DNA of 42,757 nt from an uncultured bacterium (lineage in GTDB: Bacteria; Patescibacteriota; Minisyncoccia; Moranbacterales; UBA2206). How positions within the stretch are numbered: position 1 is the stretch's first letter; every line of letters begins with the position of its first letter. A program made the translations under genes and the position numbers. The stretch lies in the NCBI GenBank assembly GCA_903841185.1, contig CAIMIV010000040.1, positions 1 through 42,757 on the forward strand. The letters are read 5' to 3'. Positions 1,671 to 32,077 of the stretch are shown here, piece after piece. The notes below the pieces were generated by a model that saw only the letters and a list, made by a program, of their open reading frames with translations, made no database searches and was not told where the DNA came from.

Positions 1671-2443
1671 TCATTGGAACTTTCCCAACTGAATAGATGG
1701 TCTATTACACAACCCTGGTCTTGAGGCAGCGGAAATGAGGTCGCGGGAGTCGTAATTAGTTAATTACAATGTGCTTGCAACGCATGTTGTAATACAGTAG
1801 GTTTATTTTTCTAAATCTTACGCAAGTAAAATTTGGGAAGGTAGAAAAACCCGTAAACTCCGGTTAGCGGAATTACGGGATAAAATTGCAATAGTATAAA
1901 AGTAGTTAGTAAATTAGAAATTGCTAACTGCTAACCAATATAAATTTAAGAGCGGTAATACTAATGCATATGGCGGATGCCTTGACATTAAAAAGCGATG
2001 AAGGACGTAGCTGGCTGCGATAAGCTTCGGGGAAGTGCTAAGCAACTTTTGATCCGGAGATTTCCGAATGGGACAACCCCCTCTTATAGAGGATTCATAA
2101 CTGAATACATAGGTTATGAAAGCGAACCCTGGGAACTGAAACATCTTAGTACCAGGAGGAATATAAATCAATTGAGATTCCGCAAGTAGTGGCGAGCGAA
2201 AACGGAAGAGTCTAAACCGAGTCCTTCGGGATTCGGGGTTGCGAGGTAATTTTACTCGTTTAATCGGGGTTTTTAAATTATTTCCTTAGCAGAACACTCT
2301 GGGAAGTGTGACCATAGCAGGTGATAGTCCTGTATGCGAAAAGGAAATGTTAGAATGTAATTATTCTCAAGTAGGGCGGGACCGGAGAAATCCCGTTTGA
2401 ATCAGGGGCCACTATAGCTCCAAGACTAAATATTTTTAATGAT

Positions 2444-2482
<39 letters not shown>

Positions 2483-3911
2483 TCCCGATGAGGGAGATGA
2501 AATAGAATCTGAAACCATATGCTAACAAAGAGTCAGAGTCGTAGCAATACGATGATGGCGTGCTTTTTGTAGAACGAACCAACGAGTTAATTCTGTATTG
2601 TTTGACTAAGCTACGTTCGTAGTGGAGTCATAGTGAAAGCGAGCCTGAAAGGGCGACATAATAGTACGGATTAGACCCGAAGCCAGGTGAGCTATTTATG
2701 AGCAGGGTGAATTTGGAGTAAAATCCAAAGGAGGCCCGAACCCACGAGCCGTGCAACACTCGGGGATGACTTGTGAATAGAGGAGAAATTCCAATCGAAC
2801 TTGGCGATAGCTGGTTCTTCCCGAAATAGCTTGAGGGCTAGCGTCCATTAAATGAGCACAAGAGGTAGAGATACTGAATGAGAATCCGCGGTTCGCCGTA
2901 GGCTTCTCAACCAAACTCCGAATTCTTGTGTTTCTTATCTGGGCAGTCAGAACTCCGGGGCTAAGCTCGGAGCTCAAAACGGAAACAGCCGAGATCGCAA
3001 TCTAAGGTCCCTAAATTCATATTAAGTGGTAAAGGAGGTGAAGTTTCTTATACACCTAGAAGGTTGGCTTAGAAGCAGCCATCCTTTAAAGAGTGCGTAA
3101 CAGCTCACTAGTCTAGAGACTTCGCGCCGAAAATTCAACGGGGCTAAATATGATACCGAAGATGCGGGTTCAGTACTGCGCTTGCGCAGTATTGTCCGGT
3201 AGGGAAGTGTTCTATGCGTGATGAAGCGGCAGGCGTGAGCCACCGTGGAGTGCATAGAAGTAAGAATGTTGGTATTAGTAACCGCAATGTGGGTGAGATC
3301 CCCACACACCGAAAGTCTAAGGTTTCCTGGGCAATGTTGATCATCCCAGGGTCAGTCGGTCCTAAGGCGAGGTCGAAAGACGTAGTCGATGGACACAAGG
3401 TTAATATTCCTTGACTATTTAACGTCACGGTATGGGAGGACGCAATCTTGTACATTTTGCATCTTATTGGATTGATGTAGACATATTGAGGGTGCTTTCA
3501 TGGTAAATCCGGAAGGTATAGCCCAAGATATGGCTGGAGGTTTCTCTTCGGAGAGACCAACAAAATGGAGCAGGTTGTCTAGAAAAGTCTCTAAACTTAT
3601 CGTTAAATATCCGTACTAAAACCGACACAGGTAGACTGGGCGAGTAGCCTAAGGTGAACGAGTGATCCTCCGTTAAGGAACTCGGCAAAAAAGCTAGACG
3701 TAAGTTCGCAAGATGTCTTCCCTAATAGCAATATTAGGGCGCAGCGAAAGTTTTTCAAGCAACTGTTTACCAAAAACACAGGTCTCTGCAAACCCGTAAG
3801 GGGAAGTATAGGGGCTGACGCCTGACCAGTGCTGGAACGTTAACGGGAGAGGTGCAAGCCAATCCCCGAAGCGCCAGTGAACGTCGGCGATAACTATAAT
3901 CGTCCTAAGGT

Positions 3912-4680
3912 TCTGATCCTGCTTAGGCGGGGTTAGAAAGGACTAGGACGATTATCAGTAGGTAAATATGTTACAAAGCGAAATAAATTACGAAGGGAAA
4001 AGTAGGCGCCTATCCCGAGCAATCGGGATGTAAATCAGCTATATGCTGGAAAGTCTGGAGAATCTGTGGCTACTATGGTACAATTATTCCATATAAATTA
4101 ATGGAAAAAATATGCCAAGTAAAAATGCTTACAGTGCAGATAATCAGCAGGAAAGACTAAAGAATGTTGGTTGGATAGTCGGTTATGTTGATGGAGAAGG
4201 ATGTTTTTCAGTCAGTCTTTTTAGAAATAAGACTACAAAATTCGGGTGGCAAGTGTTTCCAGAATTTGTAGTTACGCAAGGCGAAAAAAGTAAAGAATCC
4301 TTAAAGATTCTTGAAGATTTTTTTCGATGTGGCAAGGTATATGTCAATAGACGATACGATAACCACACGGAAAATATTTATCGCTACTGTGTAAGATCTA
4401 AAAAAGAATTGACCGAAATAATAATTCCTTTTTTCCAAGAACAGCAACTGAGAACAGCCAAAAAAGAAGATTTTAAAATCTTTGCAAAAATTGTTGACAT
4501 GATGAATCGGAATATTCATAGTAGTATGTCAGGCATGGAAAAAATTGCAAAGTTGATTGAAAAAATGAATCATAAAAAATCTTCAAAATTTTTAGAATCC
4601 TCAGAGACTATACGCTGATGCTTTGTTTATCAAAGTAAGATATAGTCCGTTCTCTATGGCGACATAGAGCTAACATAAAG
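3912..4680 (+). mobile_element. Group I intron (IB-like core) at LSU position 1931, E. coli numbering
   Basis: Exons rejoin as CCTAAGGT|AGCGAAATTCC. Terminal G at 4680. Core elements: P ATGCTGGAAA (4043), Q AATCAGCAGG (4142), R TCAGAGACTA (4601), S AAGATATAGTC (4637). P3 ATCAGC/GCTGAT, P7 GACTA/TAGTC, and P8 and P9 hairpins are visible. Confidence 0.93.
4112..4618 (+). CDS. Intron-encoded single-motif LAGLIDADG homing endonuclease
   Basis: WIVGYVDGEGCF motif followed by F-x-V-T-Q, 168 aa, located inside the group I intron. Confidence 0.93.
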   Translation: MPSKNAYSADNQQERLKNVGWIVGYVDGEGCFSVSLFRNKTTKFGWQVFPEFVVTQGEKSKESLKILEDFFRCGKVYVNRRYDNHTENIYRYCVRSKKELTEIIIPFFQEQQLRTAKKEDFKIFAKIVDMMNRNIHSSMSGMEKIAKLIEKMNHKKSSKFLESSETIR

Positions 4681-4958
4681 AGCGAAATTCCTTGTCAGGT
4701 AAGTTCTGACCCGCATCAATGGCGTAATGACTTGAAAACTGTCTCAACGGAGAGCTCGGTGAAATTGCAATGACGGTAAAGATGCCGTCGACCTGCAGCA
4801 AGACGAAAAGACCCCATGGAGCTTTACTACAACTTGGCATTGATTTAGAATTTTAGTTGTCGAGCTTAGGTGGGAGACTATGATATTCCGACGCTAGTCG
4901 GGATGGAGTCACCAGTGGAATACCACCCTGCTGAAGTTTTAAGTCTAACCCTGGACTG

Positions 4959-5125
4959 TTATGAGGAACAAAATTCTTTATACATTCGAACCAGAGGAGA
5001 CAAAAACTAAACGCATAAGTTGTAAAGAAGATATTGACGCTCTTGAGCGAGTGTTAATGTTGATTATTTAGTATTGTCTTTTATGGTTCACAAAAAAAAT
5101 GTATATCGTTTTTAGTTATTCATAC
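4959..5125 (+). other. Intervening sequence / expansion segment in 23S helix 79
   Basis: 167 AT-rich nt inserted between GGACTG and CAGTCC, where E. coli has a short hairpin. Folds as a long irregular stem: TATACATT/AATGTATA, GAACCA/TGGTTC, AGACAA/TTGTCT. Confidence 0.85.
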
Positions 5126-5144
5126 CAGTCCGGGAACAGTGCCT

Positions 5145-5180
<36 letters not shown>

Positions 5181-5400
5181 GGCAACGGAGGCGTTTACAA
5201 AGGTTGGTTAGGTCCGGATGGAAATCGGATTGATAGTGCAAAAGCATAAACCAGCTTTACTGAGAGACCCATCAGTCGATCAGTTACGAAAGTAGAATTT
5301 AGTGAACCGACTATCGCTTATAGGAGCGTAGAAGATCATCAGATAAAAGTTACCCTGGGGATAACAGGCTGATCCCTTCCAAGAGTCCACATCGACGAAG

Positions 5401-5442
<42 letters not shown>

Positions 5443-5446
5443 GAGA

Positions 5447-5487
<41 letters not shown>

Positions 5488-5938
5488 TGAGCTGGGTTCA
5501 AACCGTCGTGAGACAGGTTGGTCTCCTATCTGCTGTGGGCGTCGTTGCTTGAGAAGAGTCTTTCCTAGTACGAGAGGACCGGAAAGAACAAACCTCTGGT
5601 GTACGAGCTGTTCCGCCAGGAGCACTGCTCGGTAGCTACGTTTGGAAAGGATAACCGCTGAAAGCATATAAGCGGGAAGCCTCCTTCAAGATAAGGCAAC
5701 TTTTTCGATTTATTTCGAAATACAATTTCCTAGAAGATGACTAGGTTGATAGGTCTCAGATGCAAGTGCAGTAATGCATTAAGTCGAGAGATACTAATAA
5801 ATTGAAATTACACTCTTAAATTTATTTTTTAGTGACATATAATGTGCAACATTCAACAATTTATTGTCGGGTGTCTCATGTTACTTGTTGCTAAATAGGT
5901 TAGCGGTTAATAGTTTCTAATAATGCCACTGGATCAAT

Positions 5939-26179: not shown

Positions 26180-28651
26180 ATGGAATTGGATGCAATATTT
26201 TATTTACTAATAATTCTTCTTAGTCTGTTGAGCGCCGTGAGTGGTGCTTGGGTAGTGGCGCGCAGTTTCTTGAATTTTAGAACGCAATTGAACCGTTCCA
26301 TGAACATGGATCTGGAGGTGATTCGCGTTTCCAAAGTGGTGAAGCAAAGAGAAGAAAAGGAACGGGAGGATGCTTGGCATGAGGAAATTGGGGCGATGGA
26401 ACAACTCCTCACTTCCATTTCCACTATGAAGGATGGGAAAGGGGTGTTCTATCATTTTCTATTTGGTTCGCCGCATATTTCCTTTGAAATAGCTAACTCG
26501 TCTAAGAATGATGATATTGTTTTTTTTATCGCTATGCCGAAAAAATTCAGAGAAGGTATTGAGAAGGCGATTCACAGTTCTTTCCCCCATGCTTCGCTGG
26601 AAAAGGCGCCTGACTATTCTATTTTCTCTCCTAATAGCTTCACGGCTTCCGCTATCTTGCAACTAAAAAATAATTATATCTTGCCGATAAAAACTTATGA
26701 AAGTCTGGGGGTGGATCCTCTGAATGCCATTGTGAATGCGCTGAGTAAATTAGACACCAATGAAGAAGGCGCGTCGATTCAGTTGGTGATGACGCCAGCC
26801 CATCATTCTTGGCGGGCGGCTGGACGAACAGTGGCGCACAAGATGCAACAAGGCAAACGTTTGCACGAAGTGCATCATGATTCTTTTGCGCAGAAGATAG
26901 GGAGTTCTTTGCTCAGCACGGTGAATGACACGATTTTTTCCAGCAAGAGTGATCCGAATAGTCCGCGCAAGGAGACCTATCAACTTACGCCGGAAGAGCA
27001 GGAATTAGTGAAGGGGATTGATCAAAAATCCAGTAAAGCCGGTTTTTATGTGAACATTCGTTTAGTGGCCTCCGCTGCTTCCCTGGAGCGAGCACAACAA
27101 CTTCTGTCTCATCTGGAAAATGCTTTTGCTCAATTTGAAAATTCCGACATTAATCATTTTAAGATCGAGAATAGAGGAAACAATAAGAAAGTGGCTTATG
27201 ATTTTATTTTTCGCAATTTTGATGCTGAGAGTGCGATGTTGCTTAATACCGAGGAAATCGCCAGTATTTTTCACTTGCCCATTTCGGTGACGGATGCTCC
27301 GAGGATAAAATGGCTAAAGTCTAATTCCGCACCGCCACCGACCGACATCTCACGCGAAGGCATAGAATTAGGCTATAATGAATATCGGGGCATGAAAACT
27401 CCTATTCGCATCTCGCCCGTCGATAGGCGCAGACATCTCTACACTGTTGGACAAACTGGCGTGGGAAAATCTAATTTTTTGCAGGAAATGGCCAAGCAAG
27501 ATGCCAGAAACGGCAATGGCTTTTGTTTTATCGATCCACATGGCGATGCTATTGAAGATATTTTGACGGCCATTCCCAAGGAACGGGCGGAAGACGTGAT
27601 TGTTTTTGATCCGTCGGACGTGGAGCGGCCTTTCGGCATCAATATGATGGAATATGATGAAGCGCATCCCGAGCAAAAAACTTTTGTCATCAACGAGATG
27701 ATTGGTATCTTTGACCAGCTCTATGATTTGAAGGCCACCGGCGGACCGATGTTTGAACAATATATGCGTAACGCTATGCTCTTGGTGATGGATGATCCGG
27801 AAACCGGGTCTACTTTAATGGAAATTCCTAAGGTGTTGTCGGATGAAGGTTTTCGGCGTCTCAAGTTGTCTAAATGTAAGAACCATATGGTGGTGGATTT
27901 TTGGACCAAGGAGGCGGAAAAAGCCGGTGGAGAAGCGGCACTGGCTAATATGGTGCCGTACATCACTTCCAAACTGACCACTTTCTTATCTAATGATATG
28001 ATGCGGCCTATCATTTCTCAGCAACATAGCACCATCAATATGCGCGATATTATGGACAATAAAAAGATTCTGCTGATCAATCTTTCTAAAGGAAAAATAG
28101 GAGAAATTAACGCGCGCTTGTTGGGCATGGTGATGGTAGGAAAGATTTTGATGGCGGGACTTTCGCGCGCTAACATTCCTGAGAACGACCGGGTAGATTT
28201 CTATTTGTATTTGGATGAATTCCAAAATGTCACGACCAATTCCATTTCGCAGATTCTTTCCGAGGCCAGAAAATATCGCTTAGTGTTGATTTTGGCCCAT
28301 CAATTCATTGCGCAGCTCAAAGAAGAAATTTCCAAAGCGGTGTTCGGTAACGTGGGTTCGATGGTGTCCTTTCGTGTAGGGGCGGAAGATGCGGAATTTT
28401 TGCAAAAACAATTTGAGCCGACTTTTTCTTCCAATGATTTGATTAATGTGGACAATTACAATTGCTTTGCCAAAATTTTGGTGAATAATATTTTGACTAA
28501 ACCGTTTAATATGAAAACTAATATTCCCACTACGGGCAGTCAAGAGGTGGCTAACGCGCTCAAGGAATTGTCGCGTTTGAAATATGGCCGAGACAAGGAT
28601 TTGGTCAACCGTGAAATTCTGGAGCGCTCGCGCTTGGGAAGCGGAATGTAG
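26180..28651 (+). CDS. VirD4/TraD-like type IV coupling protein (HerA/FtsK superfamily ATPase)
   Basis: N-terminal TM helix, DRRRHLY, Walker A GQTGVGKS, IDPHGD, Walker B YLDEFQN, SEARKY.L.LILAHQ and FRVGAEDAE. Confidence 0.88.
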   Translation: MELDAIFYLLIILLSLLSAVSGAWVVARSFLNFRTQLNRSMNMDLEVIRVSKVVKQREEKEREDAWHEEIGAMEQLLTSISTMKDGKGVFYHFLFGSPHISFEIANSSKNDDIVFFIAMPKKFREGIEKAIHSSFPHASLEKAPDYSIFSPNSFTASAILQLKNNYILPIKTYESLGVDPLNAIVNALSKLDTNEEGASIQLVMTPAHHSWRAAGRTVAHKMQQGKRLHEVHHDSFAQKIGSSLLSTVNDTIFSSKSDPNSPRKETYQLTPEEQELVKGIDQKSSKAGFYVNIRLVASAASLERAQQLLSHLENAFAQFENSDINHFKIENRGNNKKVAYDFIFRNFDAESAMLLNTEEIASIFHLPISVTDAPRIKWLKSNSAPPPTDISREGIELGYNEYRGMKTPIRISPVDRRRHLYTVGQTGVGKSNFLQEMAKQDARNGNGFCFIDPHGDAIEDILTAIPKERAEDVIVFDPSDVERPFGINMMEYDEAHPEQKTFVINEMIGIFDQLYDLKATGGPMFEQYMRNAMLLVMDDPETGSTLMEIPKVLSDEGFRRLKLSKCKNHMVVDFWTKEAEKAGGEAALANMVPYITSKLTTFLSNDMMRPIISQQHSTINMRDIMDNKKILLINLSKGKIGEINARLLGMVMVGKILMAGLSRANIPENDRVDFYLYLDEFQNVTTNSISQILSEARKYRLVLILAHQFIAQLKEEISKAVFGNVGSMVSFRVGAEDAEFLQKQFEPTFSSNDLINVDNYNCFAKILVNNILTKPFNMKTNIPTTGSQEVANALKELSRLKYGRDKDLVNREILERSRLGSGM

Positions 28652-28674
28652 AAAATATTTATAGCAAGCCGATA

Positions 28675-28710
28675 AAAAACGACTTCTGCGTGACACGGAG
28701 TCGTTTTTTT
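28675..28710 (+). terminator. Intrinsic terminator
   Basis: AAAAAACGACTTC...GGAGTCGTTTTTTT. Confidence 0.7.
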
Positions 28711-28765
28711 ATGTGGAAGCGGGCTAGATTAGGGAGGAACTTTTTTAATAACCATAAATTGGTCA

Positions 28766-28861
28766 TTGAAAATTTCCAAACATGGTACGGGTGGAAAAAT
28801 TGTGGTAGACTATTATTCCTCAGAGGAATTGAATAATATTTTATCCAAGGCGCATGTGTGA
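28766..28861 (+). pseudogene. Fragment resembling the C-terminal dimerisation domain of ParB/Spo0J
   Basis: Hand translation LKISKHGTGGKIVVDYYSSEELNNILSKAHV*. In-frame TAG at 28730 upstream, so there is no full gene here. Confidence 0.6.
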
Positions 28862-28893
28862 TTTAAGATGGAATATAAAAAAAGTGAGTGAAC

Positions 28894-28926
28894 AAAAAAC
28901 GGAGAAAGCAAAGCTCCGTTTTTTTT
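28894..28926 (+). terminator. Intrinsic terminator after the ParB-like fragment
   Basis: AAAAAACGGAG-AAAGCAAAG-CTCCGTTTTTTTT. Confidence 0.7.
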
Positions 28927-28943
28927 GTGGCTAAATTTTTTAG

Positions 28944-28990
28944 CTGTGGATAACTTTGTTGACATGCAGTGCCGGGGGGGGGGGTATTAT
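28944..28990 (+). promoter_or_regulatory. DnaA box plus sigma70 promoter with a G11 homopolymer in a 20-bp spacer
   Basis: TGTGGATAA (28945-28953), TTGACA (28959-28964), G11 (28974-28984), TATTAT (28985-28990). Confidence 0.75.
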
Positions 28991-29021
28991 GAAGATAGTA
29001 TAAAAAAATATTTTCAAAAAA

Positions 29022-29423
29022 ATGCAAAATAAAAAAGTTGGTGTGATAATGGCGTTGTTGGCTATTGTACTATTTATTGAAGCAGCAATGTTTTTTATTC
29101 AATCCAAATCAAATCAAGCAATGGACGCCTCGCAACAACAAGATGTGCAAAATAAAGAAGTGCATATTCCTTCTGAAGAAGAAGTGGCTGCTAATATTGC
29201 TGATCATAAAATTTATGCTCAGGCTATTGAAAAAAAGGATGCATCATTATGTCAAAATATAAAAAGATCGGAGTTTAAGAAAAGCTGTGCGCAAAATGTT
29301 TCTGATTTTGCCGCCTATGCCGATGCTGTGACTAGTGGTAATCAGTCATTGTGTGAAAAAATTCAAGATGAAACACAAAAAAATACCTGCGTGAGTTTTT
29401 TTAAGAATATAACACAGAAATAA
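29022..29423 (+). CDS. Membrane-anchored protein with two C-x2-I-x8-C repeats
   Basis: N-terminal TM helix, then KDASLCQNIKRSEFKKSC and GNQSLCEKIQDETQKNTC. Confidence 0.75.
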   Translation: MQNKKVGVIMALLAIVLFIEAAMFFIQSKSNQAMDASQQQDVQNKEVHIPSEEEVAANIADHKIYAQAIEKKDASLCQNIKRSEFKKSCAQNVSDFAAYADAVTSGNQSLCEKIQDETQKNTCVSFFKNITQK

Positions 29424-29456
29424 TAATGCCAATTAATATCAATATGATAAAAAAAT

Positions 29457-32015
29457 ATGAATAAAATGAAGCGTACATTGCATTTCATTATGGTAGCACT
29501 TGTTATTTATGGGGGCTGGGCAAATAGCGCTTTAGCCGTAGGAGATCCGGTTTCTGATGGTAATTATGATGGGTGCACTATTACAAGTACTTGGCATTGT
29601 TCCGAGACTAATATTAGCGCGAATCCACAGGAAAAAGATTGTTCAGCGACTTTTTATCAAACAGCAGGTGACAACAATGATTTGAGCGATTATGTTAGAA
29701 ATGGCGGTTCTACATTTAGTGAACGATGCGCTATTGGATGTCCCAATCCAGTTGCTTGTGGGAAGTGTGAATGTCGGTGTGATGGATCAACCTTGAAATG
29801 CGCGGATCGTTGGATTGACAATGGTTATGCAGTAGCTCGAGTTTGCGACTCTTCATCTTTTCCAAATAGTGGTTTATGCGCAAACGCAGCTTGCGGAGCG
29901 CGTAACGGACATGTCTACGCATATACGGATAAAAACTGGGATGATGTTACCTATCCACCGTGTGCAAAAGGGAGTGAACTGATTGCGGCTGATGCAGGAA
30001 CTTGGACTTTTCTTGCGCCTGGCACAACAAAAACTTGGCAATGTATGTCAAAAACAAATGAAAAAAATACTGTGAGTTGTAGTGCTAGCAGGGAAGCTGC
30101 TCCAATAATTCCATCCTGTACGATTGATTTCAGTCCCAAATCTGGAACAGCTCCGATTGATTATCCATTAACTGTTGGAATGTCCAAAGATGCAGATAAC
30201 CAGGCATATTGTCAATGCACGGGATCACTTGTCCCCAAGGACTCAAAAGGTCAATATTTATCAGCAACAACATATTCACAGCACACGGATGTGGCTGGCG
30301 ACAAATCATGCACATGCACCGTGCAAAGCTCCACGGGAAACACGGCGACATGCACTGATAGCGTTAATTTTGCAGCTGCATGTGTCTCGGATACTTGTGC
30401 TGCCAATACTTGTACCGGACAAACATGTTGGAATGGTTGTGCTACAGTCAATGGCACAAAGAACTGTCCATCAGCTCCCACCTGCAACCTCTATTTCGAA
30501 CCTGGCAACCTCACCGCCGCCGGAGATGCAAAACTAACCGTGAAAACAACAAATGCGACTAGTAATTCCATTTTCTGCACCGGTCCAGGCACCTCCGGCA
30601 AAACAATCAGTCTTGATGATGGCACATACTCGCAACATTTTGATATCAGTCAAACTGGTACAAAAAATTGCGATATGACTGTCTCGGGGCCGGGTGGTAG
30701 CAGCATTTGTAATGGTTGGATTAGTGTAGCTGCACCACCAGGGGGAGGCGCCACTTGCGGACCGAATGCAAAAAATTATGCATCCACAGATACCACTTGG
30801 CCAACGATAGTGGCGGGAAGTTTTTGCGCTACGGGGGATGGGGTGGGTACTGCCGGTCAACCGACTTTTCCGAGTGCGAACAACTCAGTGAGCTGGACTT
30901 GCTTGGGCTCAAGCGGCGGAGCAAATACAACCTGTACGGCTATGCGAGCGGCTGTTGGATGCACCGCTGATTGCTCTTGTGCTGCCAATACTTGTTCAGG
31001 AGAAACTTGCGGTGATGGATGTGGCGGATTTTGCAACGGGGCGAGAGGCTGCAGTAAGACCGGCTGCGGATCGGCTAATGGGCAAACATTTGATCGCGAA
31101 GTGACGTATGATGATGCTTTGTGTAGCCGTCCGGAATATGCGTCACACTTAACACCGGATTGGGAAACATCATGGTATTATGATACTCCTCCAAATGGTC
31201 ATGGCTGGCATTGGTATTGTATGGCCAATGGTAGCGATTGGTCAGGATGTACGGCGCGTTCTAGTATAATAAATGACTTTTTTCCAGTTTGTGGTGAGGA
31301 TGTAGGAACATGTAAGAAAGGAACCCCAATCCCAGCCACTGTGTATTATTGTGATCCGGCTGATTATGCCACAATGAAAAGCGACCTTGATAGGGAATTT
31401 GCAGCGTATAATCAAAAAAATGCCGATGAATGTTATGAAAAAATGATTGATACATATGGGGATAGTAGTTGTTATCGTTGGTGGGGCTATGGAGGATCTT
31501 CAACTTATATTTGTGAACCGAAATATATTTATGATAATTGTGTTAGCCAAGGCGGAACAACTGATAAACAACGTCCAAAAAGTATCTACGAGAGACTTGA
31601 AGCTAAGTATGGATCTTGGGATGCTTGTGGTTTTTTGAGTAGTACTACTCCGAGCGTGCCATTCAGTGATTGGAGGTGTGTAAATAAATGGGGTCAATAT
31701 AGTAATAGGTGTACGATAGCTGCTGCTGAGGTTAATTGTGGAAGTGCAGCTGACACCCCAACACCATCAAAACCGTTATATAATTTATGTTCCAGTGGTT
31801 CTGAAGTTTGGACAGATCCAAATGCAACAAGTGGTAAATATGAATGGACTTGTGGCACTAAGTCTTGCTCTGCAACCAAACAGACTTGCACTTGCATTGC
31901 TGATCCAAAAACTACCTGTATAGGATCTATGTATAATAATACTTGCTCGCAGAAGGTGTGTCCTGGCACCAAAGACTGTCGCGACTTGAATTGGCGCGAG
32001 GTGGCACCGAATTAG
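29457..32015 (+). CDS. Large secreted Cys/Thr/Gly-rich repeat protein (adhesin-like)
   Basis: Signal peptide (ANSALA). Repeated CG-x-A...C-x2-G...W-x-C...C-x-A modules, CAANTC.G.TC..GC repeats, and C-terminus NWREVAPN. Confidence 0.8.
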   Translation: MNKMKRTLHFIMVALVIYGGWANSALAVGDPVSDGNYDGCTITSTWHCSETNISANPQEKDCSATFYQTAGDNNDLSDYVRNGGSTFSERCAIGCPNPVACGKCECRCDGSTLKCADRWIDNGYAVARVCDSSSFPNSGLCANAACGARNGHVYAYTDKNWDDVTYPPCAKGSELIAADAGTWTFLAPGTTKTWQCMSKTNEKNTVSCSASREAAPIIPSCTIDFSPKSGTAPIDYPLTVGMSKDADNQAYCQCTGSLVPKDSKGQYLSATTYSQHTDVAGDKSCTCTVQSSTGNTATCTDSVNFAAACVSDTCAANTCTGQTCWNGCATVNGTKNCPSAPTCNLYFEPGNLTAAGDAKLTVKTTNATSNSIFCTGPGTSGKTISLDDGTYSQHFDISQTGTKNCDMTVSGPGGSSICNGWISVAAPPGGGATCGPNAKNYASTDTTWPTIVAGSFCATGDGVGTAGQPTFPSANNSVSWTCLGSSGGANTTCTAMRAAVGCTADCSCAANTCSGETCGDGCGGFCNGARGCSKTGCGSANGQTFDREVTYDDALCSRPEYASHLTPDWETSWYYDTPPNGHGWHWYCMANGSDWSGCTARSSIINDFFPVCGEDVGTCKKGTPIPATVYYCDPADYATMKSDLDREFAAYNQKNADECYEKMIDTYGDSSCYRWWGYGGSSTYICEPKYIYDNCVSQGGTTDKQRPKSIYERLEAKYGSWDACGFLSSTTPSVPFSDWRCVNKWGQYSNRCTIAAAEVNCGSAADTPTPSKPLYNLCSSGSEVWTDPNATSGKYEWTCGTKSCSATKQTCTCIADPKTTCIGSMYNNTCSQKVCPGTKDCRDLNWREVAPN

Positions 32016-32035: not shown

Positions 32036-32077
32036 AATCAAAAAGAATATCCGCCACTGCGGATATTCTTTTGATTT
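32036..32077. terminator. Bidirectional intrinsic terminator
   Basis: AATCAAAAAGAATATCCGC-CACT-GCGGATATTCTTTTGATT between convergent genes. Confidence 0.75.

Follow-up and report, generated by a model that had tools for sequence, protein, structure and literature searches.

The window, a 42,757-nt stretch of DNA that forms contig C40 of genome G000 (1.34 Mb, 71 contigs, 96% complete) from an uncultured CPR bacterium, carries a run of 11 G residues in the spacer of a sigma-70-type promoter, between its −35 and −10 hexamers. This tract is probably a real, functional slippage switch or dial. The explanation that we favor, with a probability of roughly 0.65, is a slipped-strand promoter-spacer switch or dial of the porA and tp0126 kind, which would control a terminator-bracketed operon of two orphan exported proteins. 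A slippage-prone homopolymer, found as G10 or G11, would make up the −10-proximal half of the spacer in a TTGACA-N9-Gn-TATTAT promoter, and the operon under its control would encode a small protein anchored in the membrane and a large, Cys-rich one that is secreted. G residues would be gained or lost in replication and, as neither MutS nor MutL was found, such changes would probably go unrepaired. Each change in length would shift the distance and the angle between −35 and −10 and would thereby alter promoter strength, so that the population would hold cells with different levels of operon expression.

The poly-G promoter and its operon

The two hexamers are separated by a 20-nt spacer (28965-28984), which consists of the 9-nt sequence TGCAGTGCC followed by 11 nt that are all G (table 1). 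A preliminary description of the locus had reported a perfect TTGACA and a TATTAT 20 bp apart, 11 of these positions being G, and had seen no other G/C homopolymer of such length in the window. Both observations are confirmed. A homopolymer of at least ~8 nt thus lies between the −35 and −10 of a sigma-70-type promoter (TTGACA-N9-G11-TATTAT), and it is the sole G/C run longer than 6 nt in the window, which otherwise contains five G6 runs and no C run of 6 nt or more. Dinucleotide-preserving shuffles yielded on average 0.35 G9 matches per shuffle, and three of 100 shuffles reached the three overlapping matches observed; as a control for the rarity of the G run in the window, they are only moderate. 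Transcription may start at about position 28997, a candidate site placed from the sequence.

Table 1. Features of the poly-G promoter and of the transcription unit predicted downstream of it (positions in the window).
Feature	Position	Strand	Basis and remarks
Terminator-like hairpin CGGAG...CTCCG between an A run and T8	28893..28928	+	Read in sequence; last hairpin in the fold
−35 hexamer TTGACA, perfect consensus	28959..28964	+	Sequence reading; same hexamer 9-10 nt 5' of the G tract at 8/8 family sites
Non-repeat part of the spacer, 9 nt, TGCAGTGCC	28965..28973	+	N = 9 or 10 at 8/8 family sites, 4-14 permitted
G11 homopolymer, variable part of the spacer	28974..28984	+	G10 in contigs of three other runs (one G absent at 28974)
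−10 hexamer TATTAT	28985..28990	+	TAnnnT-like hexamer directly adjoins the tract at all 9 family/order sites listed
Gene, 133-aa orphan protein	29022..29423	+	ORF; N-terminal hydrophobic anchor, then helical domain with two C-x11-C pairs
Gene, 852-aa orphan secreted protein	29457..32015	+	ORF; signal-peptide-like N-terminus ending ALA|VG; 68 Cys
Bidirectional terminator-like hairpin, 14 pairs	32041..32072	.	Terminator scan; ends the operon and the convergent dnaE-like gene

The upstream terminator-like hairpin, which the consensus terminator scan omitted because its loop is 9 nt long, ends at position 28928, 30 nt before the −35 hexamer, and would shut out transcription arriving from further 5'. 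Downstream, the 852-aa ORF begins 33 nt past the 133-aa ORF. As terminators bracket the unit and leave only these 30 nt before the −35, the poly-G promoter is the only plausible promoter of the two-gene operon.

Neither of the two proteins belongs to a Pfam family or to a meaningful NCBIfam family. Among 5.8 billion proteins, the 133-aa protein matches itself only. The matches of the 852-aa protein with a good E value are restricted to itself and to one paralogue, encoded in contig C26 of the same genome, whose upstream region differs and is devoid of a tract. No close orthologue of the 852-aa protein was found in 60 relatives. The AF2 model of the 133-aa protein (pLDDT 79) is all-helical, with an N-terminal helix at residues 5-30, and has no match in the PDB at E ≤0.001; the Atlas structure search with the 852-aa protein gave no usable match. 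Read by eye, the N-termini predict that both genes encode surface or exported products. Both had been described as Cys-rich, which holds for the 852-aa protein (68 Cys, 8.0%) and not for the 133-aa protein (4 Cys).

Tract length, spacer optimum, and known systems

Variation of the tract was compared on the assembled contigs of four lake-water runs from one study, one of which (X1) is possibly the source of the window. Over 2 kb (28400-30400), the only departures from the window are a C>T shared by the four runs and the length of the tract. The tract is G11 in X1, whose two contigs stop or start inside or beside it, none bridging it. It is G10 in X2, X3, and X4, with depths of 13.2 (a single contig of 2530 nt), 2.3, and 4.2, respectively; two of these three G10 contigs have a depth <5, and the low-depth contigs of X3 and X4 terminate just past the tract. 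In the contigs of the four runs, no indel was reported in the A/T runs of the same 2-kb stretch, and no 17-nt (G8) allele of the locus was seen. At the contig level, the length of the tract thus varies (G11 vs. G10) among otherwise identical DNA. Short of read-level proof, this difference appears to mark a hypermutable site in a population that is otherwise clonal, and the break between the X1 contigs hints at length heterogeneity within that sample. An exact-flank pattern searched in metagenome contigs retrieved 0 stretches and thus no further alleles of the locus. The preliminary description had proposed that the population switches expression of the operon: the G10 and G11 tracts of samples identical over 2 kb uphold the variation that this supposes, so that the proposal is supported in part.

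The other promoters of the genome provide a reference for spacer length. Genome-wide, TTGACA-Nx-TAnnnT occurs at 35 sites for x = 16, 110 for x = 17, 18 for x = 18, 15 for x = 19, and 18 for x = 20, with 9-31 sites at other spacings. The excess of 110 sites at 17 nt over a background of 9-31 indicates that canonical sigma-70-type promoters, with a sharp optimum at 17 nt, are in use in this genome. The 17-bp spacers previously noted for other promoters in the window therefore hold genome-wide, and spacers of 19-20 nt fall outside the normal promoter range of this genome. By arithmetic, a G8 tract restores a 17-nt spacer, as had been pointed out.

Long G/C runs are themselves unusual in this genome. 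Over the whole 1.34 Mb, runs of 5, 6, 7, 8, 9, 10, and 11 nt number 758, 115, 11, 4, 0, 1, and 3, respectively. Runs of 7-9 nt thus show a strong depletion, while those of 10-11 nt persist, with four tracts. Because the counts decay to 0 at 9 nt and reappear at 10-11 nt, the long tracts form a distinct class. In this 96%-complete genome, we found no match for MutS (TIGR01070) and none above the cut-off for MutL (TIGR00585), so that slippage errors at long homopolymers should persist.

In Neisseria meningitidis porA, a poly-G tract lies between −35 and −10 and its slippage sets transcription (van der Ende et al. 1995, as cited in PMC7864442). In Treponema pallidum tp0126, which encodes an OmpW homologue, E. 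coli reporter assays showed transcription to be optimal at a total spacer of 17 nt (Giacani et al. 2015, as cited in PMC7864442). For both genes, the account given in PMC7864442 is that poly-G spacing sets transcription, with an optimum of 17 nt. The promoter of the window resembles that of porA by its G homopolymer of ~9-11 nt in a sigma-70-type spacer and by the exported- or surface-protein gene downstream; it differs in that porA reaches 17 nt at its common tract lengths, whereas the alleles observed here give 19 and 20 nt and G8 would be needed (PMC7864442). The hosts also differ, the present one being an uncultured, free-living or epibiotic CPR bacterium and not a pathogen. With tp0126, the locus shares a poly-G tract between −35 and −10 and a small genome; unlike in tp0126, where the length dependence was measured, it is deduced here, and the two proteins are unrelated orphans (PMC7864442). 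A further parallel is offered by T. pallidum tprE/G/J and tprL, where 8 G's or fewer are permissive and longer tracts reduce transcription (PMC7864442). They also carry a G tract near the promoter, and their behavior would match a default-low state at G10/G11; the tprL tract, however, overlaps the −10 and leaves the −35/−10 spacing unchanged, whereas here the tract is strictly between the hexamers (PMC7864442). By analogy with porA and tp0126, and from the preference of this genome for 17 nt, we infer that tract length sets the transcription rate, in which case G8 would be the optimal length and G10 and G11 would be low or OFF states.

The mechanism is a classical, textbook one, and the lineage is little studied. 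A full-text literature search found no relevant paper on phase variation in CPR/Patescibacteria, in line with the preliminary description, whose author was aware of none. The prevailing view is that CPR/Patescibacteria live attached to other microbial cells; to our knowledge, hardly anything has been described about the ways in which they vary their surface. If the switch proposed here works, minimal CPR cells would share a bet-hedging trick of host-adapted pathogens, which would fit the apparent lack of MutS and MutL.

Recurrence of the layout in relatives and across phyla

A search of related genomes for TTGACA-N-polyG-TA..AT had been suggested, and the layout was found at 8 family sites (6/71 genomes) and 13 order sites (9/319 genomes). 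Long tracts are also present among relatives: G/C runs of at least 10 nt occur in 24 of 61 related genomes (G000 counted) and in half of those of the same family (18/36). N is 9 or 10 at each of the 8 distinct family sites, which were retrieved with the pattern TTGACA-N{4,14}-G9+. As a control, the pattern was reversed and then had no match in the same 71 genomes. Directly 3' of the tract, these sites carry −10-like hexamers (TATTAT at five of them, and TACAAT, TATGCT, and CATACT), and one further order-level site carries TAAAAT. These nine listed sites comprise eight from the family, with the window included, and one from a different family in the order; at each, the distance from the end of the tract to an ORF start is 37-170 nt. 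Exported proteins are encoded downstream at only three of the nine. Judging from the sequences, the poly-G promoters of the family appear to drive varied genes, mostly encoding proteins without export signals; cytoplasmic-looking and radical-SAM proteins are among them. In a sister genus, two loci (L046 and L047, in G083:C13 and G085:C12) have orthologous N10+G9 promoters before genes for secreted M23 peptidases with an InlB B-repeat, which are candidate cell-wall hydrolases.

At the order level, the pattern TTGACA-N{8,16}-G6-TAWWAT had 36 matches in 32 of 319 genomes. Thirteen sites, in nine genomes, have a tract of G9 or longer; the other 23 matches correspond to 19 copies of a palindromic element with a 14-15-nt spacer and to four G6-8 sites with spacers of 15-17 nt. 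In almost all order-level cases, the tract starts 9-10 nt after the −35. The palindromic element, present in 19 genomes that belong mostly to one family, f2 (e.g., G145:C1:615097-615122), has the conserved sequence TTGACA(A)TACCC..GGGGGG(G)TATTAT. Its C run and G run form an internal palindrome, and the 14-15 nt between its hexamers are too short for a normal promoter; it might be an operator or another conserved site. In a phylum sample of 401 genomes, we found six sites in four genomes. One of these, G384, has three paralogous signal-peptide genes with the same promoter and tracts of G11, G9, and G11. Altogether, the layout TTGACA-N9/10-G9-12-TAnnnT recurs at 20 other CPR sites, and was never found reversed or with poly-C.

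The poly-C version of the layout was absent from all 319 genomes of the order, against 13 poly-G sites in nine of them, which shows the design to be strand-specific. The same absence, together with the poly-G tract and the perfect TTGACA of the window, separates the locus from the C-stretches of the Bordetella fim type. In fim, a poly-C tract lies between the activator-binding site and the −10, no consensus −35 is known to be present, and the promoter-region homopolymer tunes the expression of surface proteins. In fim and Neisseria opc the tract is sense-strand poly-C and lies at the activator site or the −35 region, whereas here it is poly-G and follows a perfect TTGACA. The poly-C promoter tract of opc likewise tunes surface-protein expression, according to PMC7864442.

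The layout is not confined to CPR bacteria. A wide scan for TTGACA-N{9,11}-G9-TAWWAT, with one genome per species, matched at least 120 stretches; among those listed, record titles include Bacillota, Saccharibacteria, Treponema, Mollicutes, Streptobacillus, and others. We parsed 126 sites among the matches listed. Still among the matches listed, a crude hydrophobicity rule assigns a signal-peptide-like N-terminus to 63 of 106 first downstream ORFs and to 138 of 663 control ORFs taken from elsewhere in these loci, some of the latter being spurious. This difference points to a widespread promoter design that favors exported proteins, as expected for contingency loci. The motif TTGACA-N9-G(9 or more)-TAnnAT, which is cross-phylum, export-enriched, and strand-specific and has a 19-nt mode, therefore provides a simple rule to search MAGs for candidate phase-variable genes.

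The distribution of spacer lengths at these sites bears on which length is ON. Comparator CPR sites with a tract of at least G9 number 20, and their spacer is of 17 nt once, 18 nt twice, 19 nt eleven times, 20 nt five times, and 21 nt once, the modal 19-nt spacer arising from either N9+G10 or N10+G9. The patterns applied to the 319 order and 401 phylum-sample genomes would also have matched N9+G8, and no such allele was found there. In the wide scan, restricted to 18-20 nt, spacers of 18, 19, and 20 nt number 38, 59, and 29 among the matches listed. As the comparators are modal at 19 nt and include no G8 allele, either natural populations are mostly caught in the OFF or low state or G-tract spacers work best near 19 nt. 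Moreover, the absence of a poly-C version indicates that spacer length alone is not the whole story, and the comparative data raise the question of how G tracts affect spacer geometry.

These distributions are what would be expected of a fixed class of G-tract promoters with a spacer of ~19 nt and G residues in its −10-proximal half, in which the tract is static and the G10/G11 difference represents neutral drift or noise. G-tract geometry or sigma contacts upstream of the −10, for example, would compensate for the long spacer. The 19-nt mode at 11 of the 20 comparator sites and in the wide scan, the missing N9+G8 allele, the strand specificity, and the cytoplasmic-looking and radical-SAM proteins encoded downstream all agree with such a class. 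Nevertheless, tract lengths differ between the lake samples and between the identically flanked paralogous promoters of G384, and spacers from 17 to 21 nt all occur. In addition, the poly-G spacers that have been tested, those of porA and tp0126, have their optimum at 17 nt (PMC7864442), and the other promoters of this genome avoid 19-20 nt. We therefore regard a fixed class as an unlikely explanation.

Strand specificity would also fit recognition of the G strand itself, the tract being the binding site of a regulator or, as a G run in a transcribed leader, pairing with an RNA or forming a structure, with the real promoter elsewhere. The −35 and TAnnnT-like −10 hexamers that flank the tract, here and at the comparator sites, argue against this view, as do the 30 nt from the terminator-like hairpin to the −35, which leave no space for another promoter, and the Rfam search, which finds no RNA family near the tract. 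Action of the tract at another level is thus quite improbable. Finally, although long G runs are error-prone in sequencing, the X1 contigs break at the tract, and the low-depth X3 and X4 contigs end just after it, a homopolymer error in the length of the run or in the run itself is scarcely credible, as the run lies inside unique sequence, is present in the contigs of all four runs and in the assembled genome, and has the same architecture in many independent assemblies.

Other long tracts of the genome and neighboring loci

Three other tracts of the genome are located at three DGRs: G000:C52:1159-1169 (G11), C66:5652-5662 (C11), and C32:19976-19983 (C8). Each of these DGRs has an RVT_1 RT and a local TR/VR pair, and for C66 and C32 the presence of a bAvd-like gene was confirmed. 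The remaining long tract, a G10 at C30:3575, is intergenic. Further G/C runs of at least 8 nt are located at C1:11781, C31:2617, and C59:93248. The Cys-rich 852-aa protein was considered as a possible DGR target and rejected: the TR/VR pairs are confined to the DGR contigs, and none of them involves the operon of the window.

In this and related genomes, eight avd-RT loci are arranged head to head, with the tract just upstream of the RT start; in the sense of avd, an upstream ATG precedes the tract and the conserved N-terminus of Avd follows it. Of these eight loci, four are in +1, three in +2, and only one, the C8 copy, in frame. In a second RT class, +1 applies to four loci out of six. The class-B DGR loci share the motif N0-2-TTAAAAG after the tract. 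The related DGR loci considered are L025, L026, L029, L031, L035, L039, L033, L015, L014, L013, and L030. These arrangements are hints that the DGR machinery might itself be phase-variable or dependent on slippage or frameshifting.

A broader reading, which we put forward tentatively and at well below even odds, would join these loci with the promoter of the window. The tract would belong to a genome-wide set of contingency loci built on G/C tracts, each with a default state one or two slips from ON; through these loci, the population would randomly switch an exported-protein operon and also its own machinery of targeted hypermutation. The strand-specific, N9-anchored poly-G rule found across many phyla would then reflect a promoter constraint beyond spacing. 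In keeping with this joint reading, the avd/RT genes of two of the three DGRs of the genome, and the elements of its relatives, carry out-of-frame tracts. The spacer of the surface-protein promoter, 19-20 nt compared with the usual 17 nt of the genome, and the apparent absence of mismatch repair are in its favor as well.

Other features of the window deserve mention. The gene just upstream of the operon (26180-28651) encodes an 823-aa TraD/VirD4-like coupling-type ATPase with TrwB_AAD_bind and TraG-D_C domains. It is preceded by the genes of a 929-aa protein without family and of a DUF5663 protein, and these genes may belong to a set for type IV secretion or DNA uptake. Between two terminator-like hairpins, the stretch 28713-28930 has no + strand ORF longer than 26 aa, as judged by eye. 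Its segment 28815-28930 folds into three hairpins (−24.4 kcal/mol, z −1.96), and the stretch is a weak small-RNA candidate. At 1950-5817, a 23S rRNA match spans 3868 nt for a model of 2925 positions. It contains, at 4112-4618, the ORF of a 168-aa LAGLIDADG endonuclease (Pfam E 2.3e-22); the insertion is an rRNA intron that carries a homing endonuclease.
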